From Raillietiella orientalis (taxonomy: Eukaryota), in the NCBI GenBank assembly GCA_036172245.1, contig JAYWIR010000061.1, positions 186,001-250,000 on the forward strand: DNA of 64,000 nucleotides, written 5' to 3'. The notes beneath the pieces are model-generated. The model was not told where the DNA came from. It saw only the letters and a list, made by a program, of their open reading frames with translations, and did not search any database. Positions 38,301 to 41,300 of the stretch are shown here, piece after piece (the first letter of the stretch is position 1; the number at the start of each line of letters is the position of its first letter). The position numbers and the translations under genes are program-made.

Positions 38301-41300
38301 AGCATCCCAATGCCCACCCGCTGCTACAGAGTCAACACGCCTTCTCCTTCGTCGTCTCGCTCAATTCGGGCCGCTTTTTTGCATAGTCAGCTGGTCCAGC
38401 CTTGCGATTTTGTCGAATTCTTCGCTTCTTTCTTTACTTTGCTAAATCAAGCGCATCCTCTCCGTTTTTTTCTTTTTTTTTTTTTTGTTGTTGTTCCTCT
38501 CGACCTTCTCAAACTCAAGGAGCAAGCACAGTCCCCTCCGGCTGGGTCTTTCCCGAAGCAACACGAATACGCGCGCGGGAAGCGACCGACCCCGGCAGAA
38601 GAACGATTCCGCGTGTTGCACAGTGGAAAGACCTGAACATGAATCTCCAGGTGCAGCCGGACTCGACTGAGTCAGCTCATCGCGTGTGGGAGTCTACCCG
38701 TCGAATGCCACCGCAGACGTTCCGGAGAGGCACCAGACGCGCAATGTTCCCGAGACCATAAAAGAAAGACCTTGAGAGGGCTGGCGAACGCGAGCTGCGA
38801 GGCAGTCTTCGAGAAGAGCGGCCGGAGATCCCGCGTGAACGCAAGACTTGGGATGGGAGATGGGCAGCGCTGTCCGAGGTGGATGAGAATGTGGCCGGTG
38901 GTGATGTTGGCTGTTAATCGTAAAGATAGGGATATGGGTTAGATTAGCATTATGGTTTTTAAGATGGGGATGAAGAGGGAAAGAGATATTGGAGTCCCTT
39001 TAGGTGTGAGGTGGGCTAAGAAGTGATTTCGACTGGTGGCTCAACCGGCAGCGACGGACACAACGCAGCCGACCAAGGGGAAATCCACTGACCACGTCGG
39101 TCTGTCGGAAAGTATGGACCCGATTCCCGACAAACGAAAACGGACATGGCGCCCTTATTTTGCATGACCGACCGCTTCTTCGAGGTGCAGCAGCCGATCA
39201 GCAAAACCAGGACTCGTGGAGTCTCGGCACAAGAAAACCAGCGGGCGAAAACAGATGAGCACACGGCAACCGGATGCAAATAACGGTATCACCTCACGAG
39301 ACGCCAAGCATCCAGAGAGACCGACTGACTCCCTCTGCGAGCCCTTGAGACTTTCGCTTGAATCCTCCGCTGGATCTCGCGCCTATGGAGCTGCGAAAAC
39401 TCCTCACTGGTTGCCTTCCAGATTTTCCCTGGGTTTCTTGTCAATTCGTGCCTTCCCGGACCTGAAATTCTTTGCCGAGATCTTGGCTTCCCTTTGCTTG
39501 TTTTGAAAGAACGGAACTTTCCTTTTCCAGAAGCAGACGGAAGAGCTCGAAGATTAACGCGCGAGATGAAGATTGACGTGGAAATGCCAAGCGTGCTCCG
39601 CGCGGCTTTCCGCTCTCTCCCGCCAAGTCAAACATTCCCACGTCTTTGCTTTAATGGATGAAATAACACCCCCGACAAGTTCTGTCAACATCCCGTACCC
39701 TCGCCAGTCAGCAAAGCGATCCGAACACACTGACAAGGTGCCCCTATTACGGACAAAGACACACGAAAGGTACACACACGCTCAATGTTCCCCCGACGAA
39801 CGCAAATCATCTGCAATCAGCAGATTGTTTCCTGCATTTTCCTTCGCAGGAGGATGACCTGCCGGGACAGTGAGCGCGACAACGCACCCGGATGTCGAAA
39901 ACTGGTAGGCGTGCCGAGGCGCCGTCAATCTAAGAACTATGGGCAGACAGACCGGCGTCGAGCAGATCTGCGTGTTCTTCCTGGGGCAAGCCGAACGACG
40001 GGTGTGCTGGATGAGGTCCGAAGAGTCAACAGTGCGCGAGTAGATGGACAGGTGAAGGGTAGGGTGCGAAGCACAGTGAAGCTCCCTTCCTTGATGGTCC
40101 AGCTGACCATCAACCGAAGGTAGGGTTCCAGAGCATTCCTTCGAGGTTGCCGGAGTGAGTTCCGGCAATCGAGGATTGAGAGCAGGCAATAGTCCCGCGA
40201 AAGCTGCCCCTGAACCAAAGCAACCGAAAGGAGCCGTGCCGTTCCGGTCTGCGCAGCAGAAAAGGGAGGGTGGTTCTGACGTGTAAAACTGGGGGGGGGG
40301 GCTCGATCAATGGCTTGCCAACTGAGATTTAAAGCCCGCTAAAAAAGAAAAGATAAGAAAAGAGGAGAGAGAGCCAACAAGGAATGAGCATATGAAAAAG
40401 AAAGGAAGAGACGAAGGTTGGCCAGCCTCCTTTGCACGAGGCGCTCTCAGTCGCTATCGCACTGCAGGGGGACTTGTGAAAAGGACCGAAAGCTCGACCA
40501 CCTTGGAACGAAGGCTGTCTCCTCAAGGAGGCCGCCCGGCGGAACAGACGGAAGCAGCCCGCCGCTGAGGGCGACGGGCCCCCGACTTACGAGACGAGAA
40601 GTCGGTCGAAACGAAAGGTAGCTGGCGTCAAAGGGAAGAAAGAGAAAACAACAACCGCCTGAGGACGACTCTCGTCTCCGGAAGCGGGATGATAGACAAC
40701 GAAGGGACATGCCAGAGGCCGTAGCGCTAGACCGAAAGTCCGAAGAACTCCCGAAGCTCGACTTTCGACCGGCAGCGGTGGCGACGGCGGCGAAGAACCA
40801 ACAGCCGATCGACGACTCGCTGCTTTCCTCCACAGCAACTGAGGTGCCGCGCAGCACACCCAGTCGCCTGGAAGTGGACGAAAGCGGTATCATTCGCCAT
40901 TACTATGGTTTCGACTCTTCTCACAGTCCATGACGGCGCCCTCTTCCTGGATCGTTTCCAGTCGCGACGGAGATCGCGGCTCCCGGTGGAGACTCCCAGG
41001 AGTTGTCCTCAGGCACTCATTCGTCTTCTGCACAAGTGCCTTTTGCATTCGCGAAGTGCAGTGTTCATGGTTCCCCTCCGGGTCAGTTTCCACCGAGAGG
41101 TCACACAAGACCCTCCAGGCAGCTTCTTTTCGGCTTTCCTGAAGGGCTCGGAGCTGGAGTTGCCCCTTCTCGCACGGGCGCCCTGTTCCTCGTCCTCTGC
41201 CTCATCTTTCTCAACCCACAGCCCGAACGGGAGGCGCCATTAGGTGCAAGAGGAGAGGAGGGAGGGAGTGGCGAAGTTCGGCAGATCTGCGACGCGGGAA

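Follow-up and report, generated by a model that had tools for sequence, protein, structure and literature searches.

A decayed, intron-less copy of the 3′ end of PDE3 within an intron of the parental gene in Raillietiella orientalis, with a probable origin from spliced RNA

Here we describe a short, decayed copy of the 3′ end of a phosphodiesterase gene, PDE3, that lies inside one of the gene's own introns in Raillietiella orientalis. The analysis covers a 64,000-nucleotide (nt) stretch of contig JAYWIR010000061.1 (assembly GCA_036172245.1, positions 186,001 to 250,000 of the forward strand), hereafter the window, in which the minus strand carries an animal-type PDE3 gene whose exons are spread between 62.9 kb and 29.46 kb. 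The copy, which we call C1, joins three consecutive exons, the first of them truncated, without the two introns that separate them in the parent (Table 1). Judged from its sequence, it very probably derives from a spliced PDE3 transcript, because an RNA intermediate is the only economical way of removing two introns exactly from a non-functional copy. As to how it reached its present site, our tentative reading is that an internal fragment of PDE3 complementary DNA (cDNA) was long ago joined non-homologously at a break in the gene's own 5.25-kb intron. Exon numbers 11 to 13 are labels taken over from an initial annotation of the window and carry no further meaning.

Table 1. Window coordinates of the PDE3 gene, of the copies derived from its 3′ region and of associated elements
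Feature	Position	Strand	Remark
PDE3 exons	62933-62586, 55590-55465, 43398-43285, 38094-37924, 37876-37664	-	tblastn, 4 homologues
PDE3 exons, continued	37023-36787, 34272-34084, 30282-30127, 29968-29888	-	tblastn, 4 homologues
Host intron of C1, 5,250 nt, GT..AG	38034..43283	-	between the exon ending ...GYKDIP and the next exon
Parental exon 11, end of PDEase_I domain	30078..30297	-	C1 begins at its base 30149
Parental intron 11, 77 nt, GT..AG, phase 1	30001..30077	-	missing from C1
Parental exon 12, 113 nt	29888..30000	-	spliced frame and homologue alignment
Parental intron 12, 284 nt, GT..AG, phase 0	29604..29887	-	missing from C1; position common to other animals
Parental exon 13, 144 nt, contains ...VVVDF, then GTAAGC	29460..29603	-	spliced frame
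C1, intron-less decayed copy: last 72 nt of exon 11, exon 12, exon 13	40922..41235	-	314 bp
8-nt direct repeat CGCCATTA (+ strand), upper copy	41235..41242	.	abuts 5′ end of C1; possible target-site duplication
8-nt direct repeat CGCCATTA, lower copy	40895..40902	.	20 nt beyond 3′ end of C1
Mitochondrial ATP6 fragment (NUMT), ~200 nt	38843..39043	-	same intron as C1, 1.9 kb away
C2, antisense copy: 3′ part of exon 13 and ~135 nt beyond donor	32726..32955	+	source 29555-29323
C3, sense copy of DNA 1.5-1.8 kb downstream of exon 13	30614..30912	-	source 27689-27968

Comparison of 40001-41700 with the window by BLAST retrieved same-strand matches to exons 11 and 13, to which a restricted search added exon 12, giving three blocks: 41235-41164 against 30149-30077 (78% over 73 nt, E 7e-12), 41149-41044 against 29992-29889 (65% over 110 nt, E 3e-6) and 41042-40940 against 29603-29498 (76% over 108 nt, E 9e-16). 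The blocks are co-linear with the 3′ end of the gene and on the same strand, and the parental gaps between them are GT..AG introns. Against the spliced parent, 41235-40940 gives an unbroken alignment with 214 of 305 columns identical, in which the exon 12/13 junction is gapless and a surplus of 6 nt sits 5 nt past the exon 11/12 junction, reproducing the intron-less joins that the initial annotation had described. We also aligned C1 to the unspliced parent with long gaps made cheap, a check free of any exon model: one gap of exactly 284 nt opened at 29889..29606. It coincides with intron 12 apart from an ambiguity of 2 nt, accounted for by the AG common to the exon end and the intron end. In the same alignment a net 71-nt gap lies at intron 11, and beyond a 21-nt in-frame deletion the match to C1 continues as far as the final base of exon 13 (copy position 40922). 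The core of C1 scores 101 against 26 ± 4 in dinucleotide shuffles, with 0 of 200 shuffles reaching the real score. C1 stands in gene sense within the host intron, whose flanking exons join into one peptide, which upholds the proposed placement inside PDE3's own intron, and its source lies about 11 kb downstream in gene sense.

We identify the host and parent gene, by homology, as PDE3, on the strength of its catalytic domain, of its PDE3A/B-like relatives and of N- and C-terminal regions outside that domain. The translated segment 30043-30297 (minus strand) yielded 102 matches at E ≤ 0.001 in a protein collection search, the named ones being cGMP-inhibited 3′,5′-cyclic phosphodiesterase 3A/3B-like proteins of hemichordates, molluscs, arthropods, tardigrades and lancelets, with no near-identical relative among the 102. 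The PDEase_I profile (PF00233) matches open reading frames (ORFs) of four exons co-linearly, at profile positions 29-67, 62-130, 142-185 and 184-226; the metal-binding HD motif HDYNHPG is found within the ORF 37187-37933, and tblastn of four homologues also matched N-terminal PDE3 exons at 62.9 kb and 55.5 kb.

At the 3′ end, exons 11, 12 and 13 joined without introns 11 and 12 form a single open frame. For the tail alignment 17 sequences were picked from the 102 PDE3 matches and one was dropped for lack of the anchor motif; against the 16 named homologues used, the spliced frame recovers the tail motifs 'RKIFCLQTQHLQENH.FW...IKEE' and 'METI.EEE', the former also given as 'RKIFCLQT.HL.ENH.W...IK'. 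Because these conserved tail motifs align, the predicted 3′ exon model of PDE3 is supported by homology. A search with the exon 13 peptide for close relatives gave none among five candidates at E ≤ 10. Some 420 nt downstream of exon 13 lies a 450-nt AT-rich block (28590-29040) with several AATAAA-like signals in gene sense and internal direct repeats (28587-28633/28742-28788 and 28673-28763/28864-28958), which could be a young insertion or the PDE3 poly(A) region.

Without gaps, C1 and its parent share 214 of 282 bases (76%, Jukes-Cantor distance 0.29), with a further 23 gap positions. Its frame is broken by at least three indels, of 4, 2 and 5 nt, and the differences at codon positions 1, 2 and 3 number 16/94, 21/95 and 31/93. 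This divergence would correspond to about 0.2 neutral changes per site on the side of C1, with synonymous change added on the parental side, and by this pattern C1 is a neutrally drifting, non-functional relic.

The age of the two missing introns was gauged from 25 short proteins among the 102 PDE3 matches, evidently ORFs called on genomic contigs. In sixteen of the 25, which represent 12 distinct motif strings, the sequence extends from 'GDEE' as far as '...ENH.YW...IK', after which come 'V' and unrelated residues; where these proteins break ('W...IK|V'), full-length homologues continue 'IKEE...'. Intron 12 of the window breaks at the same residue ('SQIQ|KELEQ'), with a read-through of 'IQV' that denotes a phase-0 GT intron. 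Intron 12 is therefore ancient, and because its position and phase recur in these homologues, its lack in C1 is a secondary loss; the initial annotation's caveat that the ancestral gene might have lacked these introns thus fails for intron 12. Intron 11 is missing from the same 16 ORF homologues, and in five other ORFs (P0003, P0014, P0040, P0100 and P0101) a break may fall inside the acidic stretch, in an alignment of low complexity.

The initial annotation had extended the copy over 817 bp (40420..41236), and of this the 314 bp at 40922-41235 hold, whereas 40939-40420 aligns at chance level. For the co-linear blocks it had traced down to 40420 against 29497-28200, the real score was reached by 67 of 200 dinucleotide shuffles when long gaps were cheap and by 100 of 200 when gaps were priced normally. 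The loss of intron 13 that it had read into the copy is at chance level too. At the other end no similarity to the parent is found upstream of 41235, where 76 of 200 and 130 of 200 shuffles, under two gap regimes, reach the real score; since the rest of exon 11, in which conservation is highest for this region, is nevertheless unmatched above 41235, the 5′ truncation is real. By BLAST, 40001-40921 matches no other part of the window, and downstream of 40922 there is no match to the 1.3 kb after exon 13. Had C1 included part of the 3′ untranslated region (UTR), a segment of comparable age should have shown, because the non-coding pair formed by C3 and its source was detected at 64% identity. 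This absence of detected homology suggests that C1 is an internal fragment and not a 3′-anchored retrocopy. C1 ends either together with exon 13 or some 20 nt further on, with matches by eye to a dozen bases past the donor. The poly(A) tract to be looked for at the copy did not emerge either: no gene-sense A-run of at least 8 nt and no AATAAA occurs within 39000-43284, a negative that the age of the insert weakens.

We therefore tentatively favor the capture of a cDNA fragment at a break. A PDE3 transcript would have been spliced and then reverse transcribed, a piece of the cDNA would have been joined at a break in the manner of repair by reverse-transcriptase products or of class-2 templated sequence insertion, and the insert would have drifted neutrally since; its landing in its own gene may be a matter of chance, or may come from PDE3 transcripts having been locally abundant where this transcribed gene broke. 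Capture at a break is favored over insertion by a retroelement because the fragment is internal, because a nuclear mitochondrial DNA segment (NUMT) lies in the same intron and because published break patches are alike. Mouse zygotes cut with Cas9 captured pieces of spliced Pcnt and Inadl cDNA at the breaks (Ono et al., PMC4516963), and class-2 templated insertions, which have neither poly(A) nor duplication, draw on templates that include multi-exon cDNAs and mitochondrial sequence (Onozawa and Aplan, PMC5110952). C1 resembles both kinds of insert in being a short, internal, multi-exon spliced cDNA without poly(A), and its mitochondrial neighbor recalls the mitochondrial filler of these reports. 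That neighbor is A/C-rich, reads TGA where Trp belongs, has a single TAA in frame, matches Pfam ATP-synt_A with E 5e-9 (36.7 bits against a curated cut-off of 33.9), and has mammalian subunit a as its best solved relatives (E 9e-10). NUMTs are classic fillers in break repair.

Several points weigh against this capture. NUMTs are common, and the presence of one nearby is circumstantial. The putative internal nature of the fragment leans on undetected homology. A perfect 8-nt direct repeat (Table 1) flanks C1, and a true target-site duplication would point to staggered nicking by a retroelement and not end joining; a possible flanking duplication of this kind would not fit class-2 insertions. 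The published inserts differ from C1 in their donors, which these reports describe as distant loci, the donor of C1 being the broken gene itself.

The chief alternative, possible though on our assessment less likely, is a retroelement-mediated retrocopy that reached the parent's intron by chance, either target-primed by a long interspersed nuclear element (LINE), 5′-truncated and internally primed or 3′-eroded, or produced as a template-switch chimera by a long terminal repeat (LTR) element. C1 is indeed intron-less, 5′-truncated and neutrally decaying, as a LINE-derived processed pseudogene would be, and the flanking 8-nt repeat could be a short target-site duplication; by eye, A predominates in the 20-nt stretch that separates the exon 13 end from the lower repeat. 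LTR-retrotransposon-mediated retrocopies, described as the common route in non-mammalian animals, are internal, partial and without poly(A), as is C1 (Tan et al. 2016, PMC5131818). With some 250,000 windows surveyed, one chance landing in a parent gene would be expected somewhere, although for any single insertion the odds of landing in a gene of at least 35 kb are small. Unlike a LINE processed pseudogene, C1 has no poly(A), no poly(A) signal and no detectable part of a 3′ UTR, and lies inside its parent instead of at an unlinked site; the age of the insert softens the first three of these objections. A classical poly(A)-primed retrocopy is disfavored because poly(A) and a detectable 3′ UTR are lacking and the copy ends near the end of exon 13.

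The 8-nt repeat itself counts as weak evidence of a target-site duplication, because the test was post hoc and perfect survival is unlikely: repeats qualifying under the criterion, which was set post hoc, occur at 1,430 of 62,900 window positions (2.3%), and with each side at about 0.2 substitutions per site we estimate that few true duplications of 8 bp would still be perfect. Nor do the flanks of C1 hold any recognizable retrotransposon sequence, in contrast to LTR-mediated retrocopies. A self-BLAST comparison showed no long direct repeats of LTR type around C1, and a Pfam scan for reverse transcriptase, gag and integrase domains found them in 0 of 100 ORFs (54 in the host intron, 46 in 27-34 kb), a result that old elements could escape. 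The 150-amino-acid ORF 40450-40899, downstream of C1, has no relatives among 1.84 billion representatives. These negatives, too, are weakened by age. Just two matches, both below threshold, came from the 100 ORFs: the ATP6 piece that revealed the NUMT, and a DUF6454 match which, at 21.9 bits against a cut-off of 22.3, was judged spurious. Rfam and tRNA scans of 27000-44500 gave no matches, and the three arrays returned by a tandem-repeat scan, one of them the 40-nt array described below, have no bearing on C1.

Two further fragments, C2 and C3, derive from the same part of the gene and bear on whether the locus acts on itself. C2 aligns with its source at 133 of 159 columns in the best stretch and at 180 of 239 overall; its match begins within exon 13 and crosses no exon junction, and at the donor its own GT is lost. 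An apparent extension into exon 12, to which tblastn ran as far as 32597, was rejected as an artefact in the absence of nucleotide similarity upstream of 32726. C3, which lies 320 nt upstream of exon 11 at an offset of 2,944 nt from its source, shares 201 of 316 columns with it (64%) and passes through AATAAA and 70 nt more without poly(A). Neither fragment carries any sign of an RNA origin, and both keep flanking non-coding DNA of their source, a feature of segmental duplication that is absent from C1. The initial annotation's statement that the locus had captured its own RNA at least twice consequently lacks support, C2 lacking an exon junction and running 135 nt past the donor and C3 reading through its AATAAA. 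No copies of other PDE3 exons were found within the window, the best non-self match having E 0.045 apart from that of exon 11 to C1.

In C2 the exon part is identical to its source at 83 of 91 positions, the part beyond the donor at about 50 of 68 (by subtraction), so that the exon part is more alike than neutral decay of one side predicts, if both parts are of the same age. As C2 lies in intron 10, the pre-mRNA could fold it onto exon 13 and its donor; the duplex of C2 with the exon 13 region is predicted at -264 kcal/mol, where 100 shuffles gave -90 ± 8, and includes a perfect run of 35 nt. This pairing may be maintained, or the two sequences may have been homogenized by gene conversion, and it could conceivably mask the exon 13 donor or favor back-splicing of exons 11 to 13. 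The complementarity between C1 and this antisense copy claimed in the initial annotation reduces to one perfect 21-nt run: the C1-C2 duplex as a whole, at -82 kcal/mol, is no better than shuffles (-85 ± 6).

It is conceivable, if improbable, that breaks in PDE3 introns were mended on several occasions with material copied from the gene's own, partly processed transcript, leaving C1, C2 and C3. Such an explanation in cis is kept alive by the fact that the three fragments all come from the last 2.6 kb of PDE3, all lie in its upstream introns within 11 kb and show similar neutral divergence (about 0.2 per lineage for C1, and 64-65% identity for the non-coding parts of C2 and C3). DNA-level template switching, however, explains C2 and C3 equally well. 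For transcript-templated homologous repair in cis the required homology on both sides is absent, the flanks of C1 being unrelated to those of its source. The likeness to intron loss by reverse transcriptase and to transcript-templated repair in cis (PMC3652778, PMC12065846, PMC11390984) is that the gene's own cDNA or RNA acts on the locus from a 3′-biased source; those processes, however, are guided by homology and rewrite the gene in place, whereas C1 lies 11 kb upstream at a site without homology, and PDE3 has kept its introns.

The 'undescribed process' invoked in the initial annotation is not needed, since cDNA capture at breaks, partial retrocopies and an insertion bias towards parental genes are already in print (PMC5110952, PMC4516963, PMC5131818, PMC10733166). 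The last of these describes human retrocopy insertions as biased towards chromatin that contacts the parental gene in three-dimensional space, and transcript-templated break repair in cis is an active field (PMC12065846, PMC11390984). cDNA capture at a break or retroelement-mediated retroposition suffices to explain C1, and the reading in cis would extend known ideas and not found a new process. Narrow phrase searches of open-access text found, among the matches listed, no description of a retrocopy in its parent's own intron, which is not proof of novelty. cDNA patches are known at experimental breaks and cis transcript templating in reporters, and old germ-line self-insertions would show that such events occur naturally; if repair in cis did operate, C1 to C3 would be the trace that transcript-derived repair of a transcribed gene had left naturally in the germ line. 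The single locus fits chance landing and proximity-driven capture alike. With its clean single RNA-derived self-insertion and two self-derived fragments, the PDE3 locus offers a seed for a genome-wide count and not proof of a new process.

Compared with the cDNA fragment of the resident gene that we favor, it is quite improbable that C1 was copied at the DNA level from an older retrocopy of PDE3 or stems from the cDNA of a PDE3 paralogue elsewhere in the genome. The identity of only 76% between C1 and this PDE3 would suit such a donor, whereas the differences at codon positions 1 and 2 (17% and 22%) and the frameshifts fit neutral decay from this gene, and the two further fragments of the same 3′ region nearby favor a local source.

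Very improbable, in our view, is a local DNA duplication of the exon 11-13 region that either predated introns 11 and 12 or lost both later. The locus does make local DNA-type copies of its 3′ end, as C2 and C3 attest, and none of the 16 ORF homologues spanning 'GDEE' to 'IK|V' has intron 11. The shared position of intron 12, however, implies that this intron predates a copy only about 0.2-0.3 substitutions per site old, and an exact loss of two introns from a non-functional copy without an RNA step is improbable. The gap matches the intron to the base.

That C1 is functional, as an alternative terminal exon or as a regulatory RNA arm pairing with C2, is scarcely credible: its sense orientation within the pre-mRNA and the perfect 21-nt complement to C2 speak for such a role, whereas the frameshifts against the conserved tail, the even spread of changes across codon positions 1 and 2, the lack (by eye) of any AG between the upstream pyrimidine tract and the copy interior, the shuffle-level duplex with C2 and the absence of any Rfam family in 27000-44500 all speak against it.

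Elsewhere in the PDE3 gene, an interspersed repeat occurs at 47322-47798 and 54036-54514, both in PDE3 introns, with 95.8% identity over 479 nt, and an older copy of it lies at 7216-7399 (72-73% identity). A tandem array of a 40-nt unit (44148-44281, 3.3 copies, 90% matches) immediately precedes the exon region 43827-44129 when read in gene sense. Outside the gene, an AT-rich island with sharp edges (13000-18000, 32-37% GC against 50-66% in its flanks) contains a 173-amino-acid single-exon ORF with a full CRAL/TRIO domain (14737-15255, minus strand, E 8.5e-34), for which a protein atlas returned the family name and plant-labelled clusters, a placement that may mean nothing. A dual-specificity phosphatase gene (Pfam DSPc, E 7.8e-14) has exons at 460-1186 on the plus strand, near the left edge of the window.

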